Source: Nonlabens sp.
Lineage (GTDB): Bacteria; Bacteroidota; Bacteroidia; Flavobacteriales; Flavobacteriaceae
DNA: 64,000 nucleotides
NCBI RefSeq assembly: GCF_039941875.1
Contig: NZ_JBDVDQ010000016.1
Span: 81,916 to 145,915, forward strand
Reading direction: 5' to 3'
Numbering within the stretch: position 1 is the stretch's first letter; every line of letters starts with the position of its first letter. The notes below the pieces were generated by a model. That model ran no database searches. It saw only the letters and a list, made by a program, of their open reading frames with translations, and was not told the origin of the DNA. Below are positions 2,462 through 61,286 of this stretch, piece after piece. A program made the position numbers and the translations under genes.

Positions 2462-2992
2462 TTAAGCATTCTGGTGTATGTATATTTCAGTAGCGCCCTT
2501 TCCATATTTTTGATAATCAGCGTCATAAAACTTGACTTGGCTATATCGTTGAAAGAGGTAATTGAGTTCTTCTTTAAGAACTCCTTGCCCTATACCATGT
2601 ATAAAAACCAATTTAGGCACACGATTTTGAATAGCCCATTCTATCTTGTACCTCGCCGTATCTATTTGTAAATTGAGCTTATCATAAGCATCCATACCAC
2701 GTTCTGACTTCACTAATTGATGCACATGTAGATCGATTTCTACAGCAGGAATAAAAGCTGCTTTCTTTCTAGAAACCTGTCTTGCTTTAGATTTCTTAGG
2801 TGCAGGTTCTTCTTTAGGTGTAAAACTTGACACTTTGAATGATCTGTCTAAAATCAACTCACTGGGATGGTAGGTAATTTCTATGTCATCGTCAGTTAAG
2901 ATGGTTATTTGTTCCGCTTTCGCGAAAGCTACCACACCACCAAATTCATCGTCCAGAACAAGCACTCGATCGCCTTTTTTAAATGAATACAT
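2462..2992 (-). CDS. Smr/MutS2 C-terminal domain protein
   Basis: EIDLH, VFIHGIGQGVLK, YGKGATEI Smr motifs. Confidence 0.85.
   Translation of the reverse strand: MYSFKKGDRVLVLDDEFGGVVAFAKAEQITILTDDDIEITYHPSELILDRSFKVSSFTPKEEPAPKKSKARQVSRKKAAFIPAVEIDLHVHQLVKSERGMDAYDKLNLQIDTARYKIEWAIQNRVPKLVFIHGIGQGVLKEELNYLFQRYSQVKFYDADYQKYGKGATEIYIHQNA
2916..2929. repeat. Iterated palindrome GCTTTCGCGAAAGC, copy 1 (in Smr gene, AFAKA)
   Basis: Exact 14-bp match. Confidence 0.9.
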
Positions 2993-2995
2993 GGA

Positions 2996-3202
2996 CTACT
3001 CTTCTTCTTCAGATAAATGATCATCTTTATGAGCAACCCAATGTGTACTAGCACGATATGCGCCGAACATGATTAAAATCACTCCAAAAACCTTAAATAA
3101 TACGTTTGCGTCCTCATTTATAAAGGTATAGAGCAATAAAATTGCACCTACAAATATCACAAAACCGTTGATTAACTGCAAAAAGTTGTTTTTAATCGGC
3201 AT
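2996..3202 (-). CDS. Small two-TM hypothetical membrane protein
   Basis: Two hydrophobic segments; stop 3 nt before the Smr gene start. Confidence 0.7.
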   Translation of the reverse strand: MPIKNNFLQLINGFVIFVGAILLLYTFINEDANVLFKVFGVILIMFGAYRASTHWVAHKDDHLSEEEE

Positions 3203-3279
3203 TTTCTTTATTTAATCTAATTGTTATAACAAATTTATAAACTTATTTAAAAGGTAGTACCATTAGAAGGGATAAATTA

Positions 3280-3287
3280 TATTTTTG
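3280..3287 (+). promoter_or_regulatory. -7 box TATTTTTG upstream of T9SS cargo gene
   Basis: TAnnTTTG match 21 nt before ATG. Confidence 0.55.
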
Positions 3288-3308
3288 TACTGTTAAAGCA
3301 GCGTTATT

Positions 3309-5303
3309 ATGAAAAACATTATAAGCTTATTACTAGTGGGTTTTGCCTTTCAAATGGCAACCGCACAAGTATGGATTAAGGGTGATAATTTTATTTATTC
3401 CAAAGGAACAAACATCTTTGTGAAAAATAAAATTAATCTAGATACAGATTCTAAATTTTACCTTAGAGAAGAAGCACAGTTAATACAAGATGCCGATGTA
3501 CCTAATGAAGGTGATGGTATTATCTCTGTCTTTCAAGAAGGAACCACTAATAGTTACAGTTACAATTACTGGTCTTCTCCAGTAAGTGACGAATCTACTG
3601 GAACTGGTAACACTGGTTTTTTAAACACACAAATTAAATATCCAACCACAGCTGCAGGGACTAATACAGACTACACTATTACTGCTGAAGATTCACAAAT
3701 ACTAGCCTACAGTGTTAGAGATGGAGAGTCTGATGATGCTACTATAGGTGGTAGCCCTTTAAAAATAGCTGGTAGATGGTTATACACTTATGAAAGCGGT
3801 GGTAACCCTGCAACAGGATATGCTGGATGGTCTATTTTTAATGGATCACAAAACACACCTGCCGGTCAAGGTTTTACCATGAAAGGTGTTAATGAAATCG
3901 CTGGAGGATCTGCTAACTACAATGGTGGACAACGTTATGATTTTAGAGGAAGACCTAATAACGGTACAATTGAGATACAAATAGGTAATGATAACGCAAC
4001 TCTTGCCGGTAATCCTTATCCTAGCGCACTAGATTTAAAAAGATTCATACAAGTTAATGCTGAACATACCAGTGGTAATGACGTAAAAATGGATCCATGG
4101 GTTGAATTTTGGGAATCTCAAGTAGAAACCTCTCACCAGCTTACCTCTTACTTAGGTGGTTATGCAAGATACGTGCCTATGGGCTTTACTGCTGGATCTG
4201 AAAACGGTTATGATAACAGTGGTACTTATCTAGAACCTATCTTCAGAAGAACAGATAACGATGGTAATATAATAACCAGTGGTACTACAAACACTTCTGG
4301 TGTAGCAACCCCTCCAGGAACTACCACATCTAACACAGGAACTGGAATTGATGGAAGAAGAAGGTATGCCGCAATAGGCCAAGGTTTCTTTATTTCAAGA
4401 ACGAATACCGCTGTTCCTTTTACTGCCTCATCTTTTGAACAAGCTGCAACTGAATTTATCACGCCTGGTAGCGTTGTACCTAGCGGATTAGGAGAAACTA
4501 TAGAATTCAATAATTCTATGAGAGTCTTTCAAAAAGAAGATGGAAACACATCTGTATTTAAAGCTGCACCAGTTAATGGTAACCCATTAAGTAGTGTTGC
4601 TGCTATTCAAATACCTAAGATGATTATAAACGTAGTGCCTAACGGACTTTATGCTAGACCTCTTAACTTTGCTTTTGATGACAGTACATCACAAGCATAT
4701 GACTATGCATGGGAATCTCCTATATCTGGTAGAGTTGCTACAGATGCTTATATCAAAATAGGTACTGCAGGTGAATACGGTCTCTCTTCTCAAGCATTTG
4801 ATGAGAACATGGCTATTCCTATAGGTGTAGAAGTTGCGAGTTCATTTACTGCTCCTATTGATGTTGAATTTGAATTAGCTTTCTTGATCAACTTTGATCC
4901 TAATGAAGTTTATCTTCATGATAAAACAACAGGAGTTTATCATGATTTAAAAGCTGGAAACAAAACTTTATTAATTGCGCCAGGTCATTATACTGACCGT
5001 TTTGAAGTGACATTTAAAAGCACTTCTGGCACTTTAAGTAATGGACTTGTAGAAGAAACCAACTTTGATATTTTCCAAAACAATGGAAAGAAAGAGTTGA
5101 CGATACTTAATCCTAACTTAGAAGATGTAGCAAACATTTCTTTATATGACCTTGCAGGAAGACAAATCTTCTCTAATAAGCCAGCATCTGCAGAAAGCAG
5201 TTATAGTTTTGAAACAGCATCACTTTCTAGCGCTATTTACATCGCAAAAGTGACTACTGTAAATAATAAAGAAGTAGCTGTTAAGGTGAGTATCTCAAAT
5301 TAA
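3309..5303 (+). CDS. T9SS type A sorting-domain secreted protein
   Basis: Sec signal; GNPYPSALD motif; C-terminal SLYDLAGRQI...LSSAIYIAKV...KV type A CTD. Confidence 0.8.
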   Translation: MKNIISLLLVGFAFQMATAQVWIKGDNFIYSKGTNIFVKNKINLDTDSKFYLREEAQLIQDADVPNEGDGIISVFQEGTTNSYSYNYWSSPVSDESTGTGNTGFLNTQIKYPTTAAGTNTDYTITAEDSQILAYSVRDGESDDATIGGSPLKIAGRWLYTYESGGNPATGYAGWSIFNGSQNTPAGQGFTMKGVNEIAGGSANYNGGQRYDFRGRPNNGTIEIQIGNDNATLAGNPYPSALDLKRFIQVNAEHTSGNDVKMDPWVEFWESQVETSHQLTSYLGGYARYVPMGFTAGSENGYDNSGTYLEPIFRRTDNDGNIITSGTTNTSGVATPPGTTTSNTGTGIDGRRRYAAIGQGFFISRTNTAVPFTASSFEQAATEFITPGSVVPSGLGETIEFNNSMRVFQKEDGNTSVFKAAPVNGNPLSSVAAIQIPKMIINVVPNGLYARPLNFAFDDSTSQAYDYAWESPISGRVATDAYIKIGTAGEYGLSSQAFDENMAIPIGVEVASSFTAPIDVEFELAFLINFDPNEVYLHDKTTGVYHDLKAGNKTLLIAPGHYTDRFEVTFKSTSGTLSNGLVEETNFDIFQNNGKKELTILNPNLEDVANISLYDLAGRQIFSNKPASAESSYSFETASLSSAIYIAKVTTVNNKEVAVKVSISN

Positions 5304-5304
5304 T

Positions 5305-8582: not shown

Positions 8583-10001
8583 ATGTCAAAACGAAGAAGA
8601 AGAGCTCAAAAGACCTTTGAAAATGTACCAGTAGTAGATGCAGGTGCAAGAGGTAAAAGTGTTGCAAAAACAGAAGATGGAGAAGTAATTTTCCTAACAG
8701 ACGCTGTCCCAGGAGATGTGGTAAACATCCAGACTTTTAAGAAAAAGAAATCTTTTTATGAAGGTCGTGTTACAGAATTTATTGAATTAAGTGACAGACG
8801 TGCGCAGCCTGTTTGTAAACACTTCAATACTTGTGGAGGTTGTAAATGGCAACACATGACTTATGAAAGTCAATTGTATTTTAAGCAAAAAGAAGTTGCA
8901 GAGAACCTGAGAAGAATAGGTCACCTAGACTTACCAGAAATGACTCCTATCGCAGGGTCCTCTGAGCAATACCACTATCGAAATAAGATGGAATTCAGCT
9001 TTTCTGCAAACCGATGGTTAACACTAGAAGAAATTCAAAGTGATGTAGAAATAGAAGATAAAAAAGCCCTAGGTTTTCATATTCCAGGAATGTGGGATAA
9101 GATTTTACACTTAGACGAGTGTCATCTACATCCTCAAATAGGAGAAGATATTAGATTGAGTGTGCACGCTTTCGCGAAAGCGGAAAACATATCCTACTTT
9201 AACCCAAGAGAAAAAACAGGAACATTAAGAACATTAATGTTACGTATGTCCTCTACTGGTGAGAACATGGTAGTGATTCAGTTTTTTCAAGATAACGAGG
9301 CACAAAGAATCGCTTTATTAGATCATTTAAAGGAAAACTTTCCACAAATAACGTCATTGCAGTACATTATAAATGAAAAAGCAAACGACACGATTTATGA
9401 TCAAGATGTAATATGCTATAATGGCCGCGATCATATTTTTGAAGAAATGGAAGGTTTGCAATTTAAAATTAATGCAAAATCTTTTTATCAGACTAATAGT
9501 AAACAGGCTTATGAACTGTATAAAATAACTAGAGATTTTGCAGGCTTATCTGGAGAAGAACTGGTTTATGACCTTTATACAGGAACAGGAACTATCGCGC
9601 AATTTGTTGCTAAAAAAGCAAAGCATGTCGTAGGAATAGAAGCTATACCTGTAGCTATAGAAGATGCTAAAACAAATGCTTTACACAACGGTATAGAAAA
9701 CACGACATTCTTTGCCGGTGATATGAAAGACGTATTTACTCAAGAATTTATTGACGAGCACGGACAGCCAGACATTATCATAACAGACCCACCTAGGGAC
9801 GGTATGCACAAAGATGTGGTAGCACAACTTATTAAATTAAGTGCACAACGCATAGTCTATGTAAGTTGTAACAGTGCAACACAAGCACGTGATCTTGCGT
9901 TGCTAGATGAGAAATACTCCATAGTAAAGGTACAACCAGTAGATATGTTCCCACAGACACATCACGTAGAAAACGTAGTTTTACTAGAACTTAAAGGCTA
10001 G
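8583..10001 (+). CDS. rlmD: 23S rRNA (uracil-1939-C5)-methyltransferase
   Basis: TRAM N-terminus, C..CGGC Fe-S motif, DLYTGTG, DPPRDG, YVSCN, DMFPQTHHVE. Confidence 0.9.
   Translation: MSKRRRRAQKTFENVPVVDAGARGKSVAKTEDGEVIFLTDAVPGDVVNIQTFKKKKSFYEGRVTEFIELSDRRAQPVCKHFNTCGGCKWQHMTYESQLYFKQKEVAENLRRIGHLDLPEMTPIAGSSEQYHYRNKMEFSFSANRWLTLEEIQSDVEIEDKKALGFHIPGMWDKILHLDECHLHPQIGEDIRLSVHAFAKAENISYFNPREKTGTLRTLMLRMSSTGENMVVIQFFQDNEAQRIALLDHLKENFPQITSLQYIINEKANDTIYDQDVICYNGRDHIFEEMEGLQFKINAKSFYQTNSKQAYELYKITRDFAGLSGEELVYDLYTGTGTIAQFVAKKAKHVVGIEAIPVAIEDAKTNALHNGIENTTFFAGDMKDVFTQEFIDEHGQPDIIITDPPRDGMHKDVVAQLIKLSAQRIVYVSCNSATQARDLALLDEKYSIVKVQPVDMFPQTHHVENVVLLELKG
9168..9181. repeat. Iterated palindrome copy 2 (in rlmD, AFAKA)
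   Basis: CGCTTTCGCGAAAGCG at 9167-9182. Confidence 0.9.
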
Positions 10002-12958: not shown

Positions 12959-13378
12959 TTAAAACGGACTATTTCTGTCCATATAACTTTGCAATATGAT
13001 CGTGGCTGCTATCTCATCAACTAACGCTTTATTCTGGCGTTGTTTCTTCTTAAGCCCACCACTAAGCATAGCTGCATGTGCCATTTTTGAGGTAAAACGC
13101 TCATCTTCACGTTCTATTTTCACATCGGGAAACAGTTCTTGTAATTGAACGGTGTACTTTCTCAACCATGGTCCTAACTCACTATCTGTATAATCCATTT
13201 GTTTAGGCTCTCCTAACACTATGGTTTCTACCTCTTCCTTTTTAAGGTATTCTTGTAAAAAAGAGGTTAAATCACGAGTAGCAACTGTGGTAAGACCAGA
13301 CGCAATAATTTGCATAGGATCTGTAACCGCTATTCCAGTTCTTTTTTTACCGTAATCTATTGCTAGTAATCTTGCCAT
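12959..13378 (-). CDS. ruvX: Holliday junction resolvase-like RuvX/YqgF
   Basis: LAIDYGKKRTGIA, DERFTS, DEIAATIILQSY; start moved to MARLL. Confidence 0.9.
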   Translation of the reverse strand: MARLLAIDYGKKRTGIAVTDPMQIIASGLTTVATRDLTSFLQEYLKKEEVETIVLGEPKQMDYTDSELGPWLRKYTVQLQELFPDVKIEREDERFTSKMAHAAMLSGGLKKKQRQNKALVDEIAATIILQSYMDRNSPF

Positions 13379-13386
13379 ATATATTG

Positions 13387-13394
13387 CAAAAATA
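13387..13394 (-). promoter_or_regulatory. -7 box TATTTTTG for ruvX-def
   Basis: TAnnTTTG match 8 nt before ATG. Confidence 0.55.
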
Positions 13395-13457
13395 ACCAAA
13401 TCAATAAGGATGCCCTAATATGCCACCTTCAAAGTATCAATTCAAAGAGCTAGCTCT

Positions 13458-13482: not shown

Positions 13483-14298
13483 ATGGATCAATTGAGAAAT
13501 GTTATAGAAAATGCGTGGGAAGATCGCTCCCTTTTAGAAAACAAAGTCACTAAAAGCGCTATAAGAGAAGTTGTAGACATGCTAGATCGCGGTACATTGC
13601 GCGTTGCAGAGCCTACAGAAGATGGATGGCAAGTAAATGAATGGGTTAAGAAAGCCGTTGTACTTTATTTCCCTATTCAACAAATGGAAACTATAGAATG
13701 TGCTCCATTTGAATATCATGATAAAATACCTCTTAAAACCGGCTATGCAGAAAAAGGAATACGCGTTGTACCTAATGCAGTAGCTAGACATGGAGCTTAC
13801 ATCTCTAAGGGTGTTATCCTAATGCCATCTTATGTAAACATAGGTGCGCACGTAGAAGAAGGTACGATGGTAGACACATGGGCTACCGTAGGTAGTTGTG
13901 CTCAAATAGGTAAAAATGTACACTTAAGTGGTGGTGTAGGAATAGGTGGTGTTTTAGAACCACTACAAGCAGCTCCAGTAATTATAGAAGACGGTGCATT
14001 TATAGGCTCTCGTTGTATAGTAGTAGAAGGTGTACACGTAGAAAAAGAAGCTGTTCTAGGTGCAAATGTTGTTCTTACTATGAGTACTAAAATAATAGAC
14101 GTTACTGGTGATGAGCCTGTAGAGATGAAAGGTCGTGTGCCTGCACGTTCTGTGGTAATACCTGGTAGTTATACTAAAAAGTTTGCTGCTGGTGAGTTCC
14201 AAGTTCCTTGTGCTTTAATCATAGGTAGACGTAAAGAAAGTACTAATAAAAAGACATCTTTAAACGATGCTTTACGTGAATATAATGTAGCCGTTTAG
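13483..14298 (+). CDS. dapD: Tetrahydrodipicolinate N-succinyltransferase
   Basis: WQVNEWVKKAV, DTWATVGSCAQIG, GGVLEPLQA; start moved to MDQLR. Confidence 0.93.
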   Translation: MDQLRNVIENAWEDRSLLENKVTKSAIREVVDMLDRGTLRVAEPTEDGWQVNEWVKKAVVLYFPIQQMETIECAPFEYHDKIPLKTGYAEKGIRVVPNAVARHGAYISKGVILMPSYVNIGAHVEEGTMVDTWATVGSCAQIGKNVHLSGGVGIGGVLEPLQAAPVIIEDGAFIGSRCIVVEGVHVEKEAVLGANVVLTMSTKIIDVTGDEPVEMKGRVPARSVVIPGSYTKKFAAGEFQVPCALIIGRRKESTNKKTSLNDALREYNVAV

Positions 14299-15362
14299 TG
14301 CATATATTACTCATTCAATATCAAATGCTAGGTGATGTGCTTACCAGTACCATTATCGCCCAACAGCTCAAGATCACGTATCCTGATGCTCAAATCGATT
14401 ACCTCATCATCGCACATGCCGATGCTCTAGTGGCACATCACCCAGCTATTGATAATTTAATAAAAGTGACTAAGTCAGATTTTGAGAAAATGAGTTTTAT
14501 AATCTCGCTTTCGCGAAAGCTGAAACAAAAAAAATACGATCTTCTCATAGATGCTTATGGAAAAAATAATAGCGCTGTGCTATCTCATTTATCTAGAGCA
14601 AAACAAAGAATAGGTTATAAAAAATGGTTCTCTAGGCTTGCCTATACGGATGCCGTTAAAAACAATCCAGACACCTCTATTTATAAAACTGGGATAGCAC
14701 TAGGCAGCCGTATGTTGCTTACCACACCTATAACTAACGATGTGCAATGGCATTTAAAACCTAAGATATACCTAACACCAGATGAAAAGACTGAAGGCAA
14801 ACAATGGCTTTTACAATCTGGCATAGATCTTAAAAAACCACTTACTATGGTGAGTGTTTTAGGAAGTAGCGCAAATAAAACATTGCCATTTACCTCCATG
14901 GCAAAGGTGCTCGATAATTTTGTAACCCAAACAGGATCACAGTTACTTTTTAACTACATACCTAGTCAGAAAAAAGAAGCACTAGCTATATACAACGCTT
15001 GTTCTACCTCTACTCAAAAACATATTTTCATAGACGCATTTGCGCCTAGTATTAGAGATTTTTTAAAAGTATTATCACACTGCACAAGCATCATAGGTAA
15101 TGAAGGTGGCGCAATTAATATGGGTAAAGCACTAGATATACCCACTTTTGCTATATTCAGCCCATGGATTAATAAAGCATCATGGAATGTTAGTGAAGAC
15201 GGTAAAAAACACATCTCTGTACATCTGCAAGATTATTTACCAGAACTATATAAAGACTCATCTCCTAAGAACATGAAGTCTAGAGCCATGGAATTATACC
15301 AGCAATTTGATGCAAAATTGATGTTTCCCGATTTAAAGAAATTTGTCAGAGAGAATTATTAA
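14298..15362 (+). CDS. Glycosyltransferase family 9 (heptosyltransferase-like)
   Basis: IQYQMLGDVL, GNEGGAINMGKAL; GTG start overlapping dapD stop. Confidence 0.8.
   Translation: MHILLIQYQMLGDVLTSTIIAQQLKITYPDAQIDYLIIAHADALVAHHPAIDNLIKVTKSDFEKMSFIISLSRKLKQKKYDLLIDAYGKNNSAVLSHLSRAKQRIGYKKWFSRLAYTDAVKNNPDTSIYKTGIALGSRMLLTTPITNDVQWHLKPKIYLTPDEKTEGKQWLLQSGIDLKKPLTMVSVLGSSANKTLPFTSMAKVLDNFVTQTGSQLLFNYIPSQKKEALAIYNACSTSTQKHIFIDAFAPSIRDFLKVLSHCTSIIGNEGGAINMGKALDIPTFAIFSPWINKASWNVSEDGKKHISVHLQDYLPELYKDSSPKNMKSRAMELYQQFDAKLMFPDLKKFVRENY
14507..14520. repeat. Iterated palindrome copy 3 (in GT9, LSRK)
   Basis: Exact 14-bp match. Confidence 0.9.
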
Positions 15363-17970: not shown

Positions 17971-18806
17971 GACAGTAATTCTTCTATTTTGCTTTCAGAT
18001 AACTGGTAATGGGTACAAATTTGTTCCCACTGCACTCTATTAAAGTCTTGTCCTTTATTCACTTTTTTCAATGCTACGAACTGGGTACCTAAAATAGGTG
18101 TAGGTACTTCAGGACTGGTATGATTCTGCAAAGATCTAGTACCATTTAAAATAGCCATGGCTTTAAACCAAAGGTCATCTGCCTTAGGAGCTAATTTTGT
18201 AAAAAGATCAACATTTTGCACATCCTTATGCAAGCTACCTGCAGGATATAGAACACAAAAAGCACCTACAGGCATGTTATGAGGACTCTGCACTGGTGGA
18301 TCTACTATAAAAGGCCATTTACTATAAGAATTTATACGACCATCTACATAAGTCATTTTACGACACCTATTCCCTATTACCTGGTCTGGAAATTTAAGAT
18401 GTTCTTCAAAAATAATCTTAAGTGTATCAGGTTGATAAATAACATCGTCATCACAAGTAATTACAGCCTTATCAGGAAATGCCTCTATACTATGAATCAA
18501 TTTTCTATGAGAAAAACCATAAGTAGAATATCGTATCTCAAAAAGATCTCCCTCTAATTTTGAAAGCCTTTTAGGTATTTGATTTTTAAGATCTTCTTTG
18601 AGCCATAAAACAATCTTCTCGGGCAAATATTCTTGTTGCATCATACTGCGTATAGTAATGTGCAATGTTCTTAATCTAGTCGGTATAGAAGTTAGAGACA
18701 CTATTACCGGTATTCTCTTTTCAGGATGAGCGGCTAGCTTTGATTGCGGTATAAGCACCATCTTTAGACTCGTGCTTATAGACTTAGGAATTTCAGATAA
18801 CTTCAT
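17967..18806 (-). CDS. Glycosyltransferase-like protein (GT-A fold)
   Basis: IVSLTSIPTRL, ITCDDDVIY (DxD), ADDLW. Confidence 0.7.
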   Translation of the reverse strand: MKLSEIPKSISTSLKMVLIPQSKLAAHPEKRIPVIVSLTSIPTRLRTLHITIRSMMQQEYLPEKIVLWLKEDLKNQIPKRLSKLEGDLFEIRYSTYGFSHRKLIHSIEAFPDKAVITCDDDVIYQPDTLKIIFEEHLKFPDQVIGNRCRKMTYVDGRINSYSKWPFIVDPPVQSPHNMPVGAFCVLYPAGSLHKDVQNVDLFTKLAPKADDLWFKAMAILNGTRSLQNHTSPEVPTPILGTQFVALKKVNKGQDFNRVQWEQICTHYQLSESKIEELLS

Positions 18807-19573
18807 GATTTAAAAACACCTTTAATTTTCTTCTTCATGCGTTTCTTTCTATGAAAAGCTTCTTGAAACTGCTGTGTATACTTCCACATAGTCTCTATAG
18901 TAGTCTGTGGATCTTGCTTAGAAAGTAAAGCATACTCTTCTCCCATGATTTCGTACATCTCCTTTTTAGGAGATAAACGTTCAAAGTTTTTTAATCTATC
19001 CTCATATGGGATATCGTAAAATTTCATCCTATTTAAATCTACTAAAGAAAACTTATAATCTTCTCCTTCTTTCTTTATCAAGGTATTTCCTGGTGAATGA
19101 TCTAAAAAATAAATACCAGCCTCATGCATGTCGTACATGAATTTTGAAAATTGCTTTAAGATATTTTCTTTATCCTGTAATTGATCATCATTTATGATCT
19201 CGCGATAGGTAAAATCATGATTTGCATAGGCACTTACATAATAACTTTCATGCAGTCCTAGAGCTGTTAATTGTTCTAGAAAAGCAATAGGTGATGGAGT
19301 ACCTATACCGTGTTGCTCTAGATACTGCGCATTATAATAAGATCTCGCTGCCTTAGATTTTCTAAAAAATCGATACGCTATTTTATTAATAAAATTAGGC
19401 GTTCTAAAAGACTTTACTACCAGTTTCTCACCTTGGTACGTGACTACTTTAATCTTATTACGATCATCTCCTAACTGTTGAGTAGATTGATGAAATAGAT
19501 CGAGTATTTCTTGAAACCGCTTTCGCGAAAGCGTGCCACTAACAAATTTTTCTCTACTCATTATAATATCCAT
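18803..19573 (-). CDS. Lipopolysaccharide kinase (Kdo/WaaP/InaA-like)
   Basis: VVKSF, MHEAGIYFLDHSPGN, LVDLNRM kinase motifs; start could be the second Met. Confidence 0.8.
   Translation of the reverse strand: MDIIMSREKFVSGTLSRKRFQEILDLFHQSTQQLGDDRNKIKVVTYQGEKLVVKSFRTPNFINKIAYRFFRKSKAARSYYNAQYLEQHGIGTPSPIAFLEQLTALGLHESYYVSAYANHDFTYREIINDDQLQDKENILKQFSKFMYDMHEAGIYFLDHSPGNTLIKKEGEDYKFSLVDLNRMKFYDIPYEDRLKNFERLSPKKEMYEIMGEEYALLSKQDPQTTIETMWKYTQQFQEAFHRKKRMKKKIKGVFKS
19519..19532. repeat. Iterated palindrome copy 4 (in LPS kinase, LSRKR)
   Basis: CGCTTTCGCGAAAGCG at 19518-19533. Confidence 0.9.
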
Positions 19574-24755: not shown

Positions 24756-24779
24756 ATTCCGCTTTCGCGAAAGCGGAAT
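24756..24779. repeat. Iterated palindrome copy 5, extended 24-bp form ATTCCGCTTTCGCGAAAGCGGAAT
   Basis: Perfect 24-bp palindrome 30 nt upstream of pepT. Confidence 0.92.
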
Positions 24780-38901: not shown

Positions 38902-38931
38902 TGCGCATTACAAACGCGCGCGACGTGGAGG
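38902..38931 (+). repeat. GC-rich REP-like hairpin at 3' end of immunity gene 3
   Basis: TGCGCATTACAAACGCGCGCGACGTGGAGG in very AT-rich context. Confidence 0.5.
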
Positions 38932-38936
38932 ATTCT

Positions 38937-39491
38937 TCAATATTCCATTTCAATGCGGTTTATTAACAAGTCATTGACAATCTTAACTTCTGGATGAAGC
39001 TCAATTTTAAAAATTGTTACATCTTTAAAGTACTTTTCCTCTATTGAATTATAATAGCTTCTTTCTACCGGTAATAAAACAGGACTGTACTCCTTGTTAT
39101 GCATCAAATTTAATGTATGATAATTTAACCATTTATCTATAGGCTCATGAATTATGAAATAACTTTTTTCAAAAGATTTCATTGAAATGGGATCTAATTC
39201 ATTAAAATAATTATCAGAAATAATTATGTCATTAAACTTAATCTTCATTTTATTAATAATAATGGTATCATTTAGGTTAAAAACATCTCTAGGTACAAAG
39301 CGAATAGGTCCATTTAACGATACTGAATTAGGAAACTCAAAAAAAGTCTTAATAGTTAAATGATCTTTTGGTTTGATGTTTAATCTACTAATAACTTCTT
39401 CATATACAGCATTTTTATCATTCTCTTGAGTATTACCTTTTTTAAAACAAAATAACAATACAATAAAAATGAAAAATTTTATTTTAATCAT
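38937..39491 (-). CDS. Exported hypothetical protein, candidate immunity protein (cassette 3)
   Basis: Signal peptide; ATGA 4-nt overlap with upstream toxin tip. Confidence 0.6.
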   Translation of the reverse strand: MIKIKFFIFIVLLFCFKKGNTQENDKNAVYEEVISRLNIKPKDHLTIKTFFEFPNSVSLNGPIRFVPRDVFNLNDTIIINKMKIKFNDIIISDNYFNELDPISMKSFEKSYFIIHEPIDKWLNYHTLNLMHNKEYSPVLLPVERSYYNSIEEKYFKDVTIFKIELHPEVKIVNDLLINRIEMEY

Positions 39492-40036
39492 AACTTTTTA
39501 TTAATTTTTGAAATTGCTTCACTTGGTCTAAATGCTGAAGGATTATCAGTACCCTTATTAAAATGAAGAAAACCTGATCTATAATCTGAACGATGCGGCA
39601 GTTCCATTTCACCTCTAAAAATATTTATTAAATCAACTGTATCTCCAGTTTGTCGTCCATTTACTGAACTTGGATCTCTCAAACCTCCAACAGCATGTCC
39701 AATAAATTCATGCTCTACTAATCTTCCAAGATTAAACATTCTTTTTGAAAAATTTCCAGTCTCTGAAACCCAACTTCCTAATGCATTTTGTCCATCAAAA
39801 TCAGCTAAATCAACGTAGGCTGTTTTAGTTTCCATATTAGTTGAACCGTACCCTATAGGATTACTAACGTTAACGGTCTGACCTGCAACTGTGACAGAAC
39901 TATCTTCTGATCCAATATTATAGCCAAATACTAATTTCCCTTCAGAAGTACTTCCATTCTTTAATTCCCCTGCTGGCGCTCGTGCTAGTTTGCAACTAGT
40001 ACCGTACAGAGTGAAGACATAAATATAATAAATCAT
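39488..40036 (-). pseudogene. Orphan toxin C-terminal fragment with HExxGH metallopeptidase-like motif
   Basis: VEHEFIGHA; first ~24 codons come from the direct repeat. Confidence 0.5.
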
Positions 40037-40123
40037 AGAAATCTTTAGACCTCAAAGGTTTCTTATTTTCTTTTAAAAATTATTCTATTTTATTCAAACT
40101 CGGTATTCCCTAGAAACGAGTAC
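39965..40123. repeat. Direct repeat copy A (~160 bp)
   Basis: 29/30 identity at 39969-39998 vs 42260-42289 and 51/52 at 40017-40068 vs 42315-42366. Confidence 0.9.
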
Positions 40124-40160
40124 GAGCGTTTGCGCAGTAAATCTATAATTAATTTCATAA

Positions 40161-40190
40161 AAAAGGAAAGTTGTTTCTAACTTTCCTTTT
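40161..40190. terminator. Terminator hairpin after JAB-toxin immunity gene
   Basis: AAAAGGAAAGTT-GTTTCT-AACTTTCCTTTT. Confidence 0.75.
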
Positions 40191-40206
40191 CCATGATTGT
40201 GCATAT

Positions 40207-40246
40207 CACGAGCGAGACGCTTGCGCCAGTTGGCCAACTAGGGAGG
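40207..40246 (+). repeat. GC-rich REP-like hairpin at 3' end of immunity gene 2
   Basis: CACGAGCG-AGA-CGCTTGCG-CCAG...GGGAGG, ending 2 nt from the stop codon. Confidence 0.55.
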
Positions 40247-40248
40247 TT

Positions 40249-40737
40249 TTAATCGCATTTTCTAATCTGAGAATCGACTAAATGGTAACAATTTTGAGTA
40301 TCCTTTTTAATAAGCCAGGCAGAAATATCTCTAAAAGAAATAACAGATTTACCTACGTAATTACTCAAATCTATATTAAAATCAGTTTTAAATAATAAAT
40401 CGTTTTGTTTATTGATTACTACAAATACAACATTATTGTTAATGACGGTTGAAAGTATGGCTTTTTCCTGATAATTATTCAATTCCATCAGATTAGCAAT
40501 TTTACCTTGAGTGACTAAAATGTAATCATTTTCCTTAAAATCAACATACCAATTAAACTTGTTTTTATTGTTTTGACAGGTATCCTTTTTACCAATAATG
40601 TTCTCCAATTCTTTTATCAATTGTTCGTTCTTAAAAAAAACTAGATTCGAGTGTGTTGTTGAATTTTCCTTTTGAGCATAACAGAATAAAGTACAGAAGA
40701 AAATTAATACAAATATTTTGAAATTGAATGATCTCAT
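40249..40737 (-). CDS. Exported hypothetical protein, candidate immunity to JAB toxin
   Basis: Sec signal (…FCYA-Q); ATGA overlap with toxin stop. Confidence 0.65.
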   Translation of the reverse strand: MRSFNFKIFVLIFFCTLFCYAQKENSTTHSNLVFFKNEQLIKELENIIGKKDTCQNNKNKFNWYVDFKENDYILVTQGKIANLMELNNYQEKAILSTVINNNVVFVVINKQNDLLFKTDFNIDLSNYVGKSVISFRDISAWLIKKDTQNCYHLVDSQIRKCD

Positions 40738-41654
40738 AATTTAAGTTTTTTTTGTGCTGGAGCATCTATTATTATGGTATTTAATTCAAAACTTACTGAG
40801 TTCTTATCAAAGTCCTTATACTCATTTATAAACGGAGAATATATTTCAAATCTAGGTTTGAAACCTAGTCTTTTTTCGAAGATTCCTGCCGAAGAAATAT
40901 CCAATGGTGATGGGGCTAAAAAAGGATCAGGATGAGAATGTACATGATGTAATAATATTTTATGCCTTTTGGATAAAATATTTATGCTATACTCTGCATT
41001 TGATTCAAAAGATGTGCTGATATATTTAATATCTGAAAACCAATTTGAATAAGAGTGTTCACTGTCCGAATTATCTGTAATAAATTCAAACAAAGCTTTG
41101 TTATCTTTTACTTTAGTAGTTTCTATATTTTGTATTTCCCTAATTGTTCCCTCATCATCAATATGTGTTGTATTTTCAATTTTATCTAAAACACCTTTCT
41201 CAACATTTATTGAATTTCCTGTTTCTTTACCTTCATAATCTAAAGCAATAAGTTTATCATGCTTATCATTTGTAGCCCTAATAAATGCAATTTTACCATT
41301 ATCATCTATACCATAATCATCTTGTACTACTTCAGGAGCCATCCCAGTAGGATCGGTATACATCACAGGATTATTAAACGCATAAGCATACGACGACCAT
41401 TCAGGCATTTTTTCCGCCAGTGGATCAACACTCATCCATATACTTAAACTAGGGTCATAATAACGTGCTCCATAATAATACATACCGGTCTCGCTGTCCA
41501 GTTCTTTACCGTTAAATTTGAACTCGGTCTGGTAATATGATATTGAGGTTTGCTCTGCCATGGTCTCTCCAAAGGGTAAGTTAAGAAAAAACTGGTACAT
41601 ATTACCGTTTACGTCTGTTAACGCATTTGTGGTACCTAAATGGTAAATAGGTTT
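40734..41654 (-). pseudogene. Headless Rhs-core fragment with C-terminal JAB/JAMM (Tox-JAB1-like) toxin domain
   Basis: In-frame upstream of the ATG at 41600: HLGTTNALTDVNGN; then PFGE, FNGKELDSETGMYYYGARYYDP, NNPVMYTDPTG, HSHP-x6-S-x2-D. Confidence 0.85.
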
Positions 41655-42119
41655 TTAAAAGCTACAACTGCTAATTTGGTTTTTTAGGAAGTTTATTTCC
41701 TTTGATTCATCTTTTACTATTGTAAAATTGAACCATGTATCATCCTCGCCTTGATAATAGTCTATTTGATCTGACTTGTACTGCTTTGAATAGACTATTG
41801 AAGCTTCTGGAACACCACTCGAAAAAGCTTTCATAGGCAACGCAACTATACGTTTACCCTTACTAACAAAAGATATAGACTCAGAATTTAAGTTCTTAAA
41901 CCTATCCTCATCTTCTTTTGTTTTCAGCTTCACATAAAGCATAGTCTCATCGCGGCATATTTGATCAATTTCAAAAATTATTTCATCCTGATTCGTAGAA
42001 ACAGTAAGTTTTAATGAGCTATTTTCGAATGACTGACAAGAGACAATACTAACGCTTATAGTTATGATATTTAGGCTCAAGATTAACGCTCGTACCGAAC
42101 ATATTCGTTGTAGTACCAT
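41655..42119 (-). CDS. Hypothetical lipoprotein, candidate immunity protein (cassette 1)
   Basis: Hydrophobic stretch ending IVS-C; overlaps upstream short ORF; start uncertain. Confidence 0.55.
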   Translation of the reverse strand: MVLQRICSVRALILSLNIITISVSIVSCQSFENSSLKLTVSTNQDEIIFEIDQICRDETMLYVKLKTKEDEDRFKNLNSESISFVSKGKRIVALPMKAFSSGVPEASIVYSKQYKSDQIDYYQGEDDTWFNFTIVKDESKEINFLKNQISSCSF

Positions 42120-42318
42120 ATAATTTAGTTATTTCAGATAAAGTAAAAACTTGGGGTTTTACATATATACCATTTTTTGAATATAAATAAGTAATTCCAT
42201 CTTGACTTCTTCCGTAAAACACAGCGGAATTGGTATTTCCAAATATCACATTCGTTTCTCCTGCTGGCGCTTGTGCTAGTTTGCAACTACTACCATTACC
42301 GTACAGAGTTATAAACAT
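42049..42318 (-). pseudogene. Short orphan toxin-tip-like fragment fused to repeat-encoded peptide
   Basis: First ~21 codons come from direct repeat B; position parallels cassette 3. Confidence 0.35.
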
Positions 42319-42419
42319 AAATATAATAAATCATAGAAATCTTTAGACTTCAAAGGTTTCTTATTTATTTTTAAATTATTCTTATCTACTCCAACTATGT
42401 ACTCGATAGAAACGAGCAC
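42256..42419. repeat. Direct repeat copy B (~160 bp)
   Basis: See copy A. Confidence 0.9.
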
Positions 42420-42512
42420 CAGAGGTTTTGTAAACTTGCGATAGTAGTTTTATTGATTAATTAAAAGATTCTTAATTGTCAAAGAGAACAACGCCTAAAA
42501 CGAATAGAAAAT

Positions 42513-42571: not shown

Positions 42572-42585
42572 GCTTTCGCGAAAGC
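42572..42585. repeat. Iterated palindrome copy 10 (right island flank)
   Basis: CGCTTTCGCGAAAGCG at 42571-42586. Confidence 0.9.
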
Positions 42586-48433: not shown

Positions 48434-49036
48434 CTAAGAAATAGGGCCTGCTCGTACTTCTGGAATTTTATAAGTAGAATCATTAAAAGCAAATAAGACA
48501 TTGCCTCTAACTTTTACTGCTATCGCAGTTAACTGATTACGGCTATCAATAGTAATAACAGGACTTACAAAGCCTAAAACTTGCGACCCTCTATTATAAT
48601 CTTGTTTTAACTCAAAGTAACATTTGCCCTCATTATCAAATCCAGAAACAACATTTTCCTGAATTTCATAAACATCTATTTGATAATCTTTTGCGCTTTC
48701 TTTTACAGGTTCATTACCATAATCATTCAGTGCAGTTGCAACACTTGAAGCGTCTAAACTTGTAAATAATTGTTCTTTTACATTTTGAATAGCTAGATGA
48801 CTATAATAAGACACTTTTAAAGACCCATTATCTAGACTAGAAATAGTTACATTTCTAGCCCCTAAACTCAATAATTGAGTCTTTACAGTTTCTATTGCTA
48901 GGTCTTTAGAAGAAGTGTTTTCACCTTGTATAAATGTAAGTAGAACCTCTTGATTAGGTACATCTACACTTTGTTGTTGTACAACAAAATAAGAGATTAT
49001 AGCGATCAGTGCGCCTATGTACCATTTTACATTCAC
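48434..49036 (-). CDS. Conserved flavobacterial hypothetical protein
   Basis: GTG start, N-terminal TM/signal, PNQEVLL, C-terminal PEVRAGP. Confidence 0.65.
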   Translation of the reverse strand: MNVKWYIGALIAIISYFVVQQQSVDVPNQEVLLTFIQGENTSSKDLAIETVKTQLLSLGARNVTISSLDNGSLKVSYYSHLAIQNVKEQLFTSLDASSVATALNDYGNEPVKESAKDYQIDVYEIQENVVSGFDNEGKCYFELKQDYNRGSQVLGFVSPVITIDSRNQLTAIAVKVRGNVLFAFNDSTYKIPEVRAGPIS

Positions 49037-49163: not shown

Positions 49164-49185
49164 TTCCGCTTTCGCGAAAGCGGAA
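49164..49185. repeat. Iterated palindrome copy 11, extended TTCCGCTTTCGCGAAAGCGGAA
   Basis: Perfect 22-bp palindrome, intergenic. Confidence 0.92.
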
Positions 49186-49286: not shown

Positions 49287-50207
49287 CTAGATAAGCGCGT
49301 TAGTAGCTTTTACACCTTCAGCACTTGCTTGCATAGCAGCTTTTTCAGCATCACTTAAGTTAATCTCTACGATCTTCTCGATACCATTTCTACCTAATAC
49401 AACTGGCACACCGATACAAAGATCAGAAAGTCCATATTCACCATCTAATAAAGTACTACATGGGAATATTTTCTTCTGGTCACAAGCGATAGCCTGCACT
49501 AATCCAGATACAGCAGCACCTGGCGCATACCATGCACTTGTACCTAAAAGACCTGTAAGAGTTGCTCCACCTACTTTAGTAGCTTGAAGTACTTCTTCTA
49601 ATCTTTCTTCAGATAAGAATTCACTTGCTGGCACAGAGTTACGAGTTGCAAGACGAGTTAATGGCACCATTCCTTTATCAGAGTGACCACCTATTACCAT
49701 TCCATCTACGTCAGAGATCGGTGCTTCAAGAGCTTCGGCAAGACGGTATTTGAAACGAGCACTATCTAAAGCACCACCCATACCGATAATACGGTTTTTA
49801 GGTAATCCTGTTACTTTGTGTGCTAGGTAAGTCATGGTATCCATAGGATTAGAAACCACAATTAAGATAACGTCTGGAGAGTGCTTTACTAGACTTTCTG
49901 AAACAGACTTTACAATACCTGCATTAATACCTATTAATTCTTCACGAGTCATTCCTGGTTTACGTGGAATTCCTGATGTGATAACAGCGATATCGCTACC
50001 AGCAGTTTTTGAGTAATCATTTGTCGCTCCAGTAATTTTAGTATCAAAACCGTTTAATGATGCTGTTTGCATCAAGTCCATCGCTTTACCTTCGGCAAAA
50101 CCTTCTTTGATATCTACTAATACTACTTCACTTGCAAAATTTTTAATTGCAATATACTCTGCACAACTAGCGCCTACTGCACCTGCTCCTACTACGGTAA
50201 CTTTCAT
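49287..50207 (-). CDS. mdh: Malate dehydrogenase (LDH-like)
   Basis: VVGAGAVG, ITSGIPRKPGMTREEL, VSNPMD, LDSARF, GGHSD; start moved to MKVTV. Confidence 0.93.
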   Translation of the reverse strand: MKVTVVGAGAVGASCAEYIAIKNFASEVVLVDIKEGFAEGKAMDLMQTASLNGFDTKITGATNDYSKTAGSDIAVITSGIPRKPGMTREELIGINAGIVKSVSESLVKHSPDVILIVVSNPMDTMTYLAHKVTGLPKNRIIGMGGALDSARFKYRLAEALEAPISDVDGMVIGGHSDKGMVPLTRLATRNSVPASEFLSEERLEEVLQATKVGGATLTGLLGTSAWYAPGAAVSGLVQAIACDQKKIFPCSTLLDGEYGLSDLCIGVPVVLGRNGIEKIVEINLSDAEKAAMQASAEGVKATNALI

Positions 50208-50258
50208 GTTATAATGATTTAATTTATAGTATAATTTAAGGCCTAAAAAGGCTCTAAG

Positions 50259-50266
50259 CAAAAATA
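50259..50266 (-). promoter_or_regulatory. -7 box TATTTTTG for mdh
   Basis: TAnnTTTG match. Confidence 0.5.
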
Positions 50267-53685: not shown

Positions 53686-54234
53686 ATGAAAAATATTCAA
53701 ATTATCCTCTTATTTTTTACCTGCTCATTTTTCTCATTTGCACAAAATGATAGTGACCTAAGCTTCTCTCAATTAGACAAAAGCCCACTAGATGTGGTCA
53801 TGTACCGCGATGCAAATAAAGCCGCTGTGGCTAGAGTAATTTATAGTCGCCCATCTAAACGTGATAGAGAGATTTTTGGAAACCTTGTTCCTTATGATCA
53901 GGTATGGAGAACTGGCGCAAATGAAGCCACTGAAATAGCTTTTTATAAAGATGTAAAAATTAATAACGAACTAGTAAAGGCAGGAACTTACTCCATGTAC
54001 ACCATCCCGAGTGAAAACGACTGGAAATTTATACTCAACACAGACACGACACAATCTGGGCTAGAATATGACGCTACTAAAAATCTAGTTACTACCACTA
54101 TGGATGTACTACCATCACCACAAGAAATAGAGTCGTTTTCTATAAGCTTTGTAGAGCAAAACAATGGAGGTATGTTATTCTTAGGATGGGACGATACTAT
54201 CGCTAGCGTACCTTTTACCGTGGTAAATCCTTAA
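53686..54234 (+). CDS. DUF2911-family secreted protein
   Basis: YSRPSKRDREIFG-x-LVPY-x2-VWRTGANEAT; start moved to MKNIQ. Confidence 0.85.
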   Translation: MKNIQIILLFFTCSFFSFAQNDSDLSFSQLDKSPLDVVMYRDANKAAVARVIYSRPSKRDREIFGNLVPYDQVWRTGANEATEIAFYKDVKINNELVKAGTYSMYTIPSENDWKFILNTDTTQSGLEYDATKNLVTTTMDVLPSPQEIESFSISFVEQNNGGMLFLGWDDTIASVPFTVVNP

Positions 54235-54863
54235 GGTATATTTAAATACTTATGCGTTTGCAAAGAGACTTGCCATTCTGGATTTTCCATTACAAATTCA
54301 GTAATATACGGTATCATTTTTTCACGCACCGACCATTCTGGCTGTAAAAAAAGCTTGCATGTAGAAGATACTTTTTCAGATTCCGCTTTCGCGAAAGCGA
54401 GATCATGACGATTAAACACGATCACTTTAAGCTCATGTGCTGCTTCATAAACTTCCGGAAGTGGCATTTTTGCTTTTTTAGGAGATAAACAAATCCAGTC
54501 CCAATGACCAGAAAGCGGATAAGCACCACTAGTTTCAATATGAACATCTAGCGAGGAGTTTTTTAAACCTATTGTAAGAGGTTCCATATTCCATGTAAGC
54601 GGTTCTCCACCTGTTACCACAATAGTTTTACTATACTTAGATGCATTTGCTACGATCTGATCCACACCTGTAGGTGGATGCTTTTCTGGATCCCAGCTCT
54701 CTTTTACATCGCACCAGTGACACCCCACATCACAACCACCTACTCTAATAAAGTAAGCCGCGCGACCAGTGTGATATCCTTCACCTTGGATGGTGTAAAA
54801 TTCCTCCATTAAAGGTAACATTGTACCTTTTTCAACCTGTTGCTGTATTGTTTTCTCTAGCAT
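54231..54863 (-). CDS. queE: 7-carboxy-7-deazaguanine synthase (radical SAM)
   Basis: EEFYTIQGEG, GCDVGCHWCD, TGGEP, SLQTHKYL. Confidence 0.9.
   Translation of the reverse strand: MLEKTIQQQVEKGTMLPLMEEFYTIQGEGYHTGRAAYFIRVGGCDVGCHWCDVKESWDPEKHPPTGVDQIVANASKYSKTIVVTGGEPLTWNMEPLTIGLKNSSLDVHIETSGAYPLSGHWDWICLSPKKAKMPLPEVYEAAHELKVIVFNRHDLAFAKAESEKVSSTCKLFLQPEWSVREKMIPYITEFVMENPEWQVSLQTHKYLNIP
54385..54398. repeat. Iterated palindrome copy 12 (in queE, AFAKA)
   Basis: CGCTTTCGCGAAAGCG at 54384-54399. Confidence 0.9.
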
Positions 54864-59994: not shown

Positions 59995-60056
59995 TCTTGT
60001 TAATTGAGTAGATTTATTTTTTAAGATTCCGTATTTTTAACCCAAATTAAAATTGA

Positions 60057-60599
60057 ATGAGCAAAGCATTTAAACTTCAAGATAAAATAGACGAAACTTA
60101 CATTGAACAACGCAAATTGTTCATTTGGGGAATGGTAGATGATAAAACGGCTAGACACTGTGTAGATAGATTATTATACCTAGATTCTTTAAGTAATGAA
60201 GAAATCACTTTTGTAATCAATAGTCCAGGTGGTTATGTAACTGCTGGTTTTTCTATTTATGACACGATGCAAGAAATTAAAAGCCCAGTAAGCACTGTAT
60301 GTAGTGGTCTTGCTGCATCTATGGGTTCTTTACTTCTTTCTGGTGGTACTAAAGGACGTCGCATGATACAAAAACACGGTCGTGTAATGATACACCAACC
60401 TAGTGGTGGTGCTCGTGGTACCAGTGCAGACATTGAAATCACTGCAAATGAGATTCTTAAAACTAAAGAATTAAGTGCTCAAATTCTTGCAGACAACTGT
60501 GGACAGACTTTTGAAAAAGTGATGAAAGATTTTAACCGTGATTACTGGCTAGGAGCTGACGAGGCACTTGCTTACGGAATTGTGGATGGTATTTTATAA
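60057..60599 (+). CDS. clpP: ClpP-family protease subunit
   Basis: INSPGG, GLAASMGS, MIHQPSGG, RDYW. Confidence 0.85.
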   Translation: MSKAFKLQDKIDETYIEQRKLFIWGMVDDKTARHCVDRLLYLDSLSNEEITFVINSPGGYVTAGFSIYDTMQEIKSPVSTVCSGLAASMGSLLLSGGTKGRRMIQKHGRVMIHQPSGGARGTSADIEITANEILKTKELSAQILADNCGQTFEKVMKDFNRDYWLGADEALAYGIVDGIL

Positions 60600-60619
60600 A
60601 TAACATAACACATTTATTC

Positions 60620-60651
60620 AAAAAGCCAGCTTGTCTTTAAGCTGGCTTTTT
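60620..60651 (+). terminator. Intrinsic terminator after clpP
   Basis: AAAAGCCAGCTT-GTCTTT-AAGCTGGCTTTT. Confidence 0.75.
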
Positions 60652-60663
60652 AATTTTATAAAA

Positions 60664-60873
60664 ATGGTTAGAGATTACTTAAACGCTTACTTTAGAACAA
60701 TTTCATTTATCTTTTTAATCTTGTTCGGTATTTATGTAATACTTACTATTGGCTCAGAAGAATACTTAAAATCATTTGTCACCTCTTTTTCATACACCTT
60801 ACTACCAGTTGTAGTAGGTAATATTCCCATCGCCTGGCTTTATTATTACATCCATAAAAAATCAACTCAATGA
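60664..60873 (+). CDS. Small two-TM hypothetical protein
   Basis: Hydrophobic ORF overlapping next gene by ATGA; start moved to MVRDY. Confidence 0.5.
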   Translation: MVRDYLNAYFRTISFIFLILFGIYVILTIGSEEYLKSFVTSFSYTLLPVVVGNIPIAWLYYYIHKKSTQ

Positions 60874-61286
60874 AACTAACTCCTTTTCACCTCGCGATTC
60901 CAGTTAAAGAAATCACCACCACACGTGCGTTTTATCGCGATACATTAGGCTGTAAAGAAGGACGTAGTTCAGACCATTGGGTAGACTTTGATTTTTTTGG
61001 TCATCAACTGGTTATACATGTGACAGAAGAGGCTCAAAAAGCAGCCATTAATGCCGTAGATGGCAAGGCCGTTCCTGTTCCACATTTTGGTGTCGTTCTA
61101 GAATGGGATATTTTTCACGCTTTCGCGAAAGCGGTAAAAGAAAAAGGCATCCAGTTTATAATTGAGCCGTACATAAGATTTGAAGGACTACCAGGCGAGC
61201 AAGCCACGATGTTCTTTCAAGACCCAAGCGGAAATTCACTAGAGTTTAAGTCCTTTAAAGACTTTGATCAAATATTTGCATCATGA
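60870..61286 (+). CDS. VOC/glyoxalase-family protein
   Basis: PFHLAIPV, DFFGHQLVIH, VPHFGVVL, DPSGNSLEFK. Confidence 0.88.
   Translation: MKLTPFHLAIPVKEITTTRAFYRDTLGCKEGRSSDHWVDFDFFGHQLVIHVTEEAQKAAINAVDGKAVPVPHFGVVLEWDIFHAFAKAVKEKGIQFIIEPYIRFEGLPGEQATMFFQDPSGNSLEFKSFKDFDQIFAS
61119..61132. repeat. Iterated palindrome copy 13 (in VOC gene, AFAKA)
   Basis: CGCTTTCGCGAAAGCG at 61118-61133. Confidence 0.9.

Follow-up and report, generated by a model that had tools for sequence, protein, structure and literature searches.

A 64-kb stretch of the genome of the marine flavobacterium Nonlabens sp. (assembly G000, contig C16, positions 81916-145915; this whole stretch is hereafter called the window, and window positions are counted from its first nucleotide) harbours many copies of a palindromic word, GCTTTCGCGAAAGC, a 14-mer that in most cases is extended to the 16-mer CGCTTTCGCGAAAGCG. 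We conclude with high confidence that CGCTTTCGCGAAAGCG is a selectively maintained word and neither a mobile element nor an RNA signal. It is written in place by point substitutions, even at an amino-acid cost, is kept letter-perfect, needs both of its halves and is found approximately once per 2-8 kb of long-resident DNA. It is a self-DNA word of the same class as the cyanobacterial highly iterated palindrome (HIP1) and the uptake signal sequences (USS), and it is apparently an undescribed cousin of HIP1 and of DNA-uptake sequences. A literature search yielded no paper mentioning the 14-mer or a 12-mer, a Nonlabens palindrome or a Flavobacteriaceae uptake sequence of this word.

The G000 assembly (3,166,013 bp in 24 contigs, 34.6% G+C) contains 672 exact copies of the 14-mer, 581 of which correspond to the 16-mer. 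Markov models of order 1 to 4 predict 0.002-0.009 copies per genome, i.e., about 1e-4 per window; the word's own copies inflate the order-5 expectation to 5.4. The window contains 12 exact copies and a one-mismatch copy, GCTTTCGCGAAAGA, at position 38757, and 100 dinucleotide-preserving shuffles of its sequence gave no match to GCTTTCGCGAAAGC. A preliminary description of this DNA had listed 13 copies, estimated the expected number at about 1e-4 per window, reported extensions to ATTCC...GGAAT or TCTC... and proposed a fit to a Markov background as a refutation. All 13 positions proved correct, the one at 38757 being the one-mismatch copy. The estimate agrees with the Markov models of order 1 to 4, the extensions are real, and the genome-wide count exceeds the background by more than four orders of magnitude. 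Near-forms are few in G000, with 72 one-mismatch, 20 two-mismatch and 67 three-mismatch sequences, the last number being close to chance level by a rough composition estimate. The octamer TTCGCGAA lies inside the full word in 672 of its 706 occurrences, and the counts of TCGCGA and CGCG outside the word are ordinary for the composition of the genome.

Alignment of the copies showed that the C and G at positions -1 and +14 are conserved in 93% of cases, and the core is thus a 16-bp perfect palindrome. The next outward positions favour TTCC/GGAA or CTC/GAG, TTCC and CTC being the commonest prefixes. Beyond them, the top strand of the ~30 nucleotides (nt) on the left side contains 9% C (background 17%) and 43% T, and the ~30 nt on the right side mirror this composition with 9.5% G and 43% A. 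T peaks at positions -4, -7, -10 and -13, with mirrored A peaks on the opposite side, and the words TGTTG, TTGTT, GTTGT and GTTGG are enriched, each half of the palindrome having a C-poor, (TTG)n-like 5' flank. This strand asymmetry persists for genic copies in each of the three reading frames, which means that it is imposed at the DNA level, by the selection of synonymous codons and even at the expense of the encoded residue.

Half-sites standing alone show no enrichment (77 for ~101 expected), which indicates that the unit is the whole palindrome. We found no covariation between the left and right flanks at any of 30 positions and no enrichment of compensatory double variants, symmetric doubles representing 2 of the 20 two-mismatch forms. 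As the bare core hairpin is also weak (-4.3 kcal/mol as DNA), we rejected an extended hairpin or cruciform. A few of the variants are CpG transitions (TTTTGCG or CGCAAAA). The commonest variant, GCTTTCGCGGAAGC, is minor everywhere in the genus, with 8-73 copies per genome, and a dialect switch within Nonlabens was discarded for this reason.

Crude gene calls for G000 (2,681 genes, 88.8% coding) place 374 copies (56%) in coding sequences (CDS), where they are read as AFAKA (212 copies), FRES (87) or LSRK (75). The 297 copies in spacers correspond to a 6-fold enrichment per kb. The word is about as dense in convergent as in tandem or divergent spacers, which is not what a terminator or promoter role would lead one to expect. 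Among the AFAKA copies, 64 of the 212 lie at most 120 nt from a predicted start, several of those inspected being in signal-peptide-like N-termini, and several form the A-x-A-like end of such N-termini (e.g., window 33215-33275). Exported proteins thus seem to offer a favoured, low-cost home for the word.

The copies are spaced with a mean of 4,648 bp and a coefficient of variation of 0.605, compared with a mean of 1.035 (minimum 0.91) in 500 random placements preserving the CDS/spacer split, and only 6 spacings are shorter than 1 kb for 141 expected. Density is uniform across the contigs of G000. The largest word-free stretches are a 34-kb region beside a mobile metal-resistance island (see below), a 27-kb low-GC island with an integrase-like gene and the ribosomal-protein operon. 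The 27-kb island (G000:C22:104677-131818, 31% G+C) is probably a recent acquisition; by the look of the translations alone, some of its products resemble cysteine desulfurase and proteins of the phosphoadenosine phosphosulfate (PAPS) reductase type (dnd-like). At a locus with a close pair of copies, 1,156 bp apart (G000:C11:101940-104710), the gene for a Type I HsdM protein (523 aa) starts 43 bp past one of the two, a proximity that is probably coincidental. We also asked whether copies mark the edges of indels or islands. When G000 is set against two close relatives, breakpoints fall within 100 bp of a copy in 11% of cases compared with 5% for random points, but they were counted redundantly and lie mostly in spacers, which are themselves 6-fold enriched in copies, and we did not retain this as evidence. 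Sequence identity rises by approximately 1.5% within 400 bp of copies, with p values of 0.046 and 0.14 in circular-shift permutations, which does not establish a recombination footprint.

The copies in the window are as follows, with open reading frames (ORFs) given with their strand where they host a copy.
2916-2929: exact copy in ORF 2462-2992 (minus strand); kept in 11 of 15 aligned Nonlabens species, with one mismatch in the other 4.
9168-9181: exact copy in a tRNA-U5-methyltransferase-like gene, 8583-10001 (plus strand); reads AFAKA, for xFAxx without a gap in outgroup genera.
14507-14520: exact copy in ORF 14298-15362 (plus strand); 1-5 mismatches at this place in one subclade.
19519-19532: exact copy in ORF 18803-19573 (minus strand); kept in 11 of 11 aligned species.
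24761-24774: exact copy in a spacer, between an ORF end at 24682 and an ORF start at 24810; extended to ATTCC...GGAAT.
29510-29523: exact copy in a spacer between minus-strand ORFs 28527-29465 and 29593-30699.
33248-33261: exact copy in ORF 33215-35746 (plus strand); encodes the AFAKA of the signal-peptide-like N-terminus MKQTMLLLLVLAFAKALPAQ.
36573-36586: exact copy in a divergent spacer (36498/36630); left flank GT-rich, right flank AC-rich.
38757-38770: one-mismatch copy GCTTTCGCGAAAGA in a spacer; left border of a variable toxin-cassette island.
42572-42585: exact copy in a spacer; right border of the same island.
49168-49181: exact copy in a spacer between ORFs 48434-49036 and 49287-50261; extended to TTCC...GGAA.
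54385-54398: exact copy in ORF 54231-54863 (minus strand).
61119-61132: exact copy in ORF 60870-61286 (plus strand).

An Rhs-type toxin/immunity cassette region (window 38826-42510; G000:C16:120741-124425) makes up the island bounded by the copies at 38757 and 42572. The close relative G024 lacks it and has ~330 bp of unrelated sequence in the interval separating the same two terminator-plus-palindrome units, whose palindromes have both decayed, with 2 and 3 changes that are mostly C:G to T:A transitions. Another relative, G007, has a different content at this spot.

We compared 20 syntenic Nonlabens loci at four of the window sites, all inside ORFs. These sites keep the 14-mer while their flanks diverge to ~70% identity, and in one species the peptide AFAKA is kept and the word has been lost by 3 synonymous changes. 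Orthologues of the tRNA-U5-methyltransferase-like gene from 29 other genera align without gaps, with xFAxx facing AFAKA, which indicates that the word was written by substitution and not inserted. The RuvX/YqgF-like gene (window 12959-13399, minus strand) is informative as well. Outgroups have the motif I-x-P-F-L-E-K-L, most Nonlabens species AFAKA, and the two other word-rich genera (see below) RFRES, which corresponds to the word shifted by 1 nt, in another frame, around the same Phe codon as AFAKA. The gene shows that the word was written independently at one proto-site; few sites are orthologous between genera. The clade of G000 has since lost the word in this gene. In that clade a 9-residue block, GVINAFAKA, has been swapped without a gap to PWLRKYTVQ, and the swapped block coincides with the palindrome and its GT-rich flank in the other Nonlabens species.

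A larger set of 928 orthologous pairs from 21 Nonlabens species, with flank identities of ~74%, confirmed the maintenance of the word. No mismatch was found in 634 pairs (68%), one in 136 and two in 33; no pair had 3 or 4 mismatches, and 125 had at least 5 or gaps. The mean of 1.3 mismatches per pair compares with 3.6 expected from the divergence of the flanks. Among close relatives, core identity amounts to 99.8-100%, for ~92% overall.

The word or its minor variant is present in 39 of the 39 Nonlabens species sampled, and the 25 species scanned for the exact word have 312-858 copies each. We counted the 16-mer in 397 good-quality genomes from 266 Flavobacteriaceae genera and found it to be abundant in only three of them: Nonlabens (498-592 copies), g268 (549 copies in genome G309) and g248 (154 copies in genome G289, a 200-kb sample of g248 containing 34 exact 14-mers). 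The 263 other genera have at most 12 copies each, and 16 genomes, each representing another family of Flavobacteriales, had none. Matches to a 22-mer form fall in Nonlabens and Dokdonia. In G309 (C3:1-200000), one-sided variants such as ATTTTCGCGAAAGC and GCTTTCGCGAAAAT are numerous, with 25 two-mismatch forms for 41 exact copies per 200 kb, which suggests a mild dialect whose reader is less strict about the outer GC.

In the five other genera whose clustered copies we inspected, all the clusters are on one shared island, homologous to the 120-131 kb region of contig C14 in G000. Versions of this island (G000:C14:120259-130800) with 70-90% identity occur in at least five other Flavobacteriaceae genera, where they account for almost all of the few copies present, among them a pair that recurs with a separation of 933 bp. 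From its translations, it looks like a metal-resistance island encoding an RND efflux pump together with a metal-transporting ATPase. It appears to have been exported horizontally from the word-rich clade, whose mark it still bears.

In the IMG/VR database, only 42 stretches contain the 16-mer. Several of these contigs are tailed phages with portal, terminase, major head and tape-measure genes, one of them with an integrase. They carry one copy per 6-7 kb, including inside portal and terminase genes, with the same, albeit weaker, flank asymmetry.
UViG_3300040781_000495: word-bearing phage contig, IMG/VR.
3300036669_000050: word-bearing phage contig, IMG/VR.
3300039191_000376: word-bearing phage contig, IMG/VR.
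The cultured Nonlabens phage P12024S (JQ823122, 35.7 kb, no integrase annotated) has no copy, even with two mismatches allowed, and a BLAST search of the 30-mer consensus against cultured phages and plasmids returned only chance matches in unrelated organisms.

HIP1 (GCGATCGC) is an exact palindrome of cyanobacteria found in genes and spacers, which spreads by substitution, has conserved sites and a non-random distribution, and whose function has long been a puzzle (PMC4390886, PMC5861425). The Nonlabens word similarly combines an exact palindrome, an enrichment by orders of magnitude, occurrence in genes and spacers, an origin by substitution and sites conserved beyond their flanks. It is several-fold sparser than HIP1, is 14-16 bp long rather than 8 and is confined to three genera of another phylum. 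Unlike HIP1, it has strand-asymmetric, C-poor ~30-nt flanks, and no cognate orphan methylase was found in G000. With the USS of Pasteurellaceae and the DNA uptake sequences (DUS) of Neisseriaceae, it shares the lineage specificity, a weaker extended flank consensus, the presence in both genes and spacers, the origin by point mutation at proto-sites, protein changes, even spacing, rarity in recently acquired DNA and minor variant forms whose frequency differs between species. In contrast, USS and DUS are asymmetric 9- to 12-mers, present about once per kb and read by a type IV pilus, whereas here the word is a 16-bp palindrome and no ATPase of type IV pili or type II secretion systems was found.

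As to its function, we tentatively favour the possibility that the word is a recognition site through which a clade-specific factor labels resident, 'self' DNA for homologous exchange, although this reading is still far from assured. In natural transformation, the factor could intervene during uptake or during the recombination that depends on RecA and DprA, as for USS and DUS and as proposed in recent work on HIP1. Being palindromic, the site would work in either orientation, and the ~30 nt that precede the core on each strand, C-poor and (TTG)n-like, would provide a single-stranded substrate beside it. Selection would bear on coverage: one site per fragment would be enough and a nearby second one would add nothing, which would lead to even spacing. 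We lean towards this reading because competent Flavobacteriales exist, HIP1 has been linked to transformation and the 5' flanks are C-poor, GT-rich and triplet-patterned. Natural competence is known in Riemerella, a member of the Flavobacteriales, and R. columbina shows a preference for its own DNA (PMC7965970). The link between HIP1 and transformation is recent (bioRxiv 10.1101/2024.09.10.611283; PMC13756078), and RecA prefers TGG-type triplet repeats, which are Chi-like (PMC3763553). We also count in its favour the abundance and lineage specificity of the word, its origin by substitution, the constraint on its DNA sequence, its even coverage, the need for both halves and the flank asymmetry seen in every reading frame, as well as the absence of the word from the low-GC integrase island and from the ribosomal-protein operon, i.e., from recent or constrained DNA. 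DprA (PF02481) was found in G000, and ComEC (PF03772) in 15 of the 15 genomes tested.

Several observations weigh against this interpretation. We have identified no reader protein. The ATPase of type IV pili and type II secretion systems (PF00437) was above the cut-off in none of the 15 genomes, and G000 has no protein with the Walker-A motif GPTGSGK[ST]. ComEC and DprA are equally present in genera devoid of the word, and the known competence genes therefore leave its clade specificity unexplained. Uptake sequences are asymmetric 9- to 12-mers found about once per kb, unlike this 16-bp perfect palindrome found once per 4.6 kb, and the ratio of one-mismatch to exact forms (72:672) is far lower than for USS. 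To our knowledge, competence of Nonlabens has not been reported. Finally, the orthologous states are bimodal, with 0-2 or at least 5 mismatches, which a graded uptake bias does not obviously predict.

The main rival to a role in uptake or recombination is a chromosome-architecture site, an explanation that we regard as unlikely but deserving of attention. A clade-specific dimeric protein would bind the palindrome in the manner of ParB/Noc, SlmA or MatP, or as a domain-boundary factor, and the even spread of sites would organize or compact the nucleoid. Sites of dimeric proteins typically look like this one, a perfect 16-bp palindrome of which both halves are required, and the strikingly regular spacing, the uniform density across contigs and the lack of a link to transcription-unit geometry are consistent with such a role, as is the presence of the word in long-resident prophage-like contigs and its absence from a lytic phage. 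The periodicity of HIP1 was read likewise (PMC5861425). The sites of ParB (parS), Noc (NBS), SlmA (SBS) and MatP (matS) are similarly 12- to 16-bp palindromes that need both halves and are scattered over the chromosome. However, those known sites tolerate degeneracy and number in the tens, whereas over 600 copies are letter-perfect here over 14-16 positions, with ten- to thirty-fold more sites, and the TTTC...GAAA half-site spacing is unlike those of parS and NBS. The strand-asymmetric C-poor ~30-nt flanks also point to a single-strand property rather than to duplex contacts, and no candidate protein was found.

It is rather improbable that the word is a palindromic Chi-like signal, which on an unwound strand, in either direction, would halt degradation by an AddAB-type enzyme and leave a C-free, (TTG)n-like 3' tail suited to RecA. 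The density of the word matches that of Chi in Escherichia coli, approximately one per 4.5 kb. On both strands the 5' flank, which would be the 3'-tail strand, is GT-rich and C-poor with a T peak at each third base, and the preference of RecA for TGG-type triplets resembling Chi (PMC3763553) fits this composition. An AddAB-like gene pair is present, and prophage-like contigs carry the word at near-host density. Nevertheless, the Chi sites of RecBCD and AddAB are asymmetric sequences of 5-8 nt co-oriented with replication, in contrast with a perfect palindrome of 14-16 bp. RecC is absent, the AddAB-like genes are equally present in genera devoid of the word, and the cultured Nonlabens phage infects its host with zero copies. 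Given that ComEC, DprA and the AddAB-like pair also occur in word-free genera and that neither a type IV pilus or type II secretion ATPase nor RecC was found, gene content neither supports nor excludes an uptake or a Chi-like role. With a similarly low degree of credence, we consider that the word may be a new type of signal, a bidirectional recombination punctuation read on single strands. Whichever side the DNA is unwound from, by AddAB at a break or upon entry during transformation, the core would be read on the exposed strand, and the C-poor (TTG)n-like tract would be passed on to RecA or DprA. If so, every 4-5 kb of self DNA and of long-resident prophage would carry a recombination entry point, and foreign DNA would have none.

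Still less probable, in our estimation, is a methylation-driven word of the HIP1 type, in which an orphan methylase would mark the CGCG/TCGCGA core, and very-short-patch-like repair or a methyl-dependent process would maintain the palindrome. Like HIP1, the word is a hyper-abundant palindrome with conserved sites that spreads by substitution (PMC4390886, PMC5861425), and the few CpG transitions among its variants would fit methylation. The preliminary description had proposed a methylation-linked site and a search for an orphan methylase. A motif-based six-frame scan of one genome, G000, gave no support to that proposal: it revealed no C5-methylase motif IV, no Vsr signature GCFWH and no Dam signature DPPY. 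All NPPY/NPPF matches correspond to RNA or protein methylases or to unrelated proteins, and the sole DNA methylase found is the Type I HsdM. In addition, TCGCGA and CGCG are not unusual outside the word, and no ordinary methylase reads 14-16 bp.

We give slightly less credit again to the idea that the word is a functionless by-product of a mutational or repair drive, such as quasi-palindrome template switching or a biased correction that perfects near-matches. Both the on/off distribution of orthologous states and the perfection of the palindrome would suit such a process, but arm-to-arm copying should leave symmetric doubles as its trace, and only 2 of the 20 two-mismatch forms are of this kind. 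Moreover, even spacing is not predicted, and a single specific word and the flank asymmetry inside genes are left unexplained.

Mobile elements and RNA signals can practically be dismissed, even though a hairpin can form at the core, spacers show a 6-fold enrichment and some genomes contain Y1 transposases. The former would be repetitive extragenic palindromes (REP) or their REPIN doublets, or miniature inverted-repeat transposable elements (MITEs), spread by a RAYT or IS200-type transposase. Like them, the word is a short dispersed palindrome enriched in spacers. Unlike them, it is not inserted, orthologues aligning without gaps, it is not confined to spacers, with 56% of copies in CDS in all frames, its stem shows no covariation, and there is no conserved RAYT. 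The Y1 transposase (PF01797) was not found in 7 of 39 Nonlabens genomes, which hold 478-762 copies where counted. In G000, it is represented only by a truncated, IS200-type 95-aa fragment (G000:C16:207821-208048, outside the window; model positions 41-121), and an intact gene is present at the syntenic place in G007 and G024. A terminator or another RNA element was likewise rejected, given the equal density in convergent, tandem and divergent spacers, the A-rich rather than T-rich 3' side, the weak core hairpin with neither flank covariation nor an excess of compensatory doubles, and the absence of an Rfam match in the window. The earlier view of the word as a HIP/REP-like signal is therefore to be amended. 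What stands is a dispersed, over-represented, lineage-specific word of the HIP1/uptake class, which is probably a recognition site. The REP part, be it as fused inverted halves of a ATTCCCGC-type REP or as the end of an insertion sequence or MITE, does not withstand the genic location of 56% of copies, their origin by substitution and the missing Y1/RAYT genes, and the methylation part is not supported by the methylase scan.

Iterated words such as USS/DUS, HIP1 and Chi offer a rare view of the discrimination between self and foreign DNA and of DNA-level selection that overrides protein coding. The present one is unusually long and exact, and it occurs in three genera that include cultured marine species. 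Its symmetric, strand-specific C-free flanks and its sharply regular spacing are features not described for other iterated words. It is a sharp marker of DNA originating in this clade, flagging the metal-resistance island that at least five other genera seem to have received and separating the prophage-like contigs examined from the one cultured phage that was checked. Its narrow range, 3 of 266 genera, makes the gene of its reader findable by phylogenetic profiling, which could also help with the question of HIP-like palindromes.

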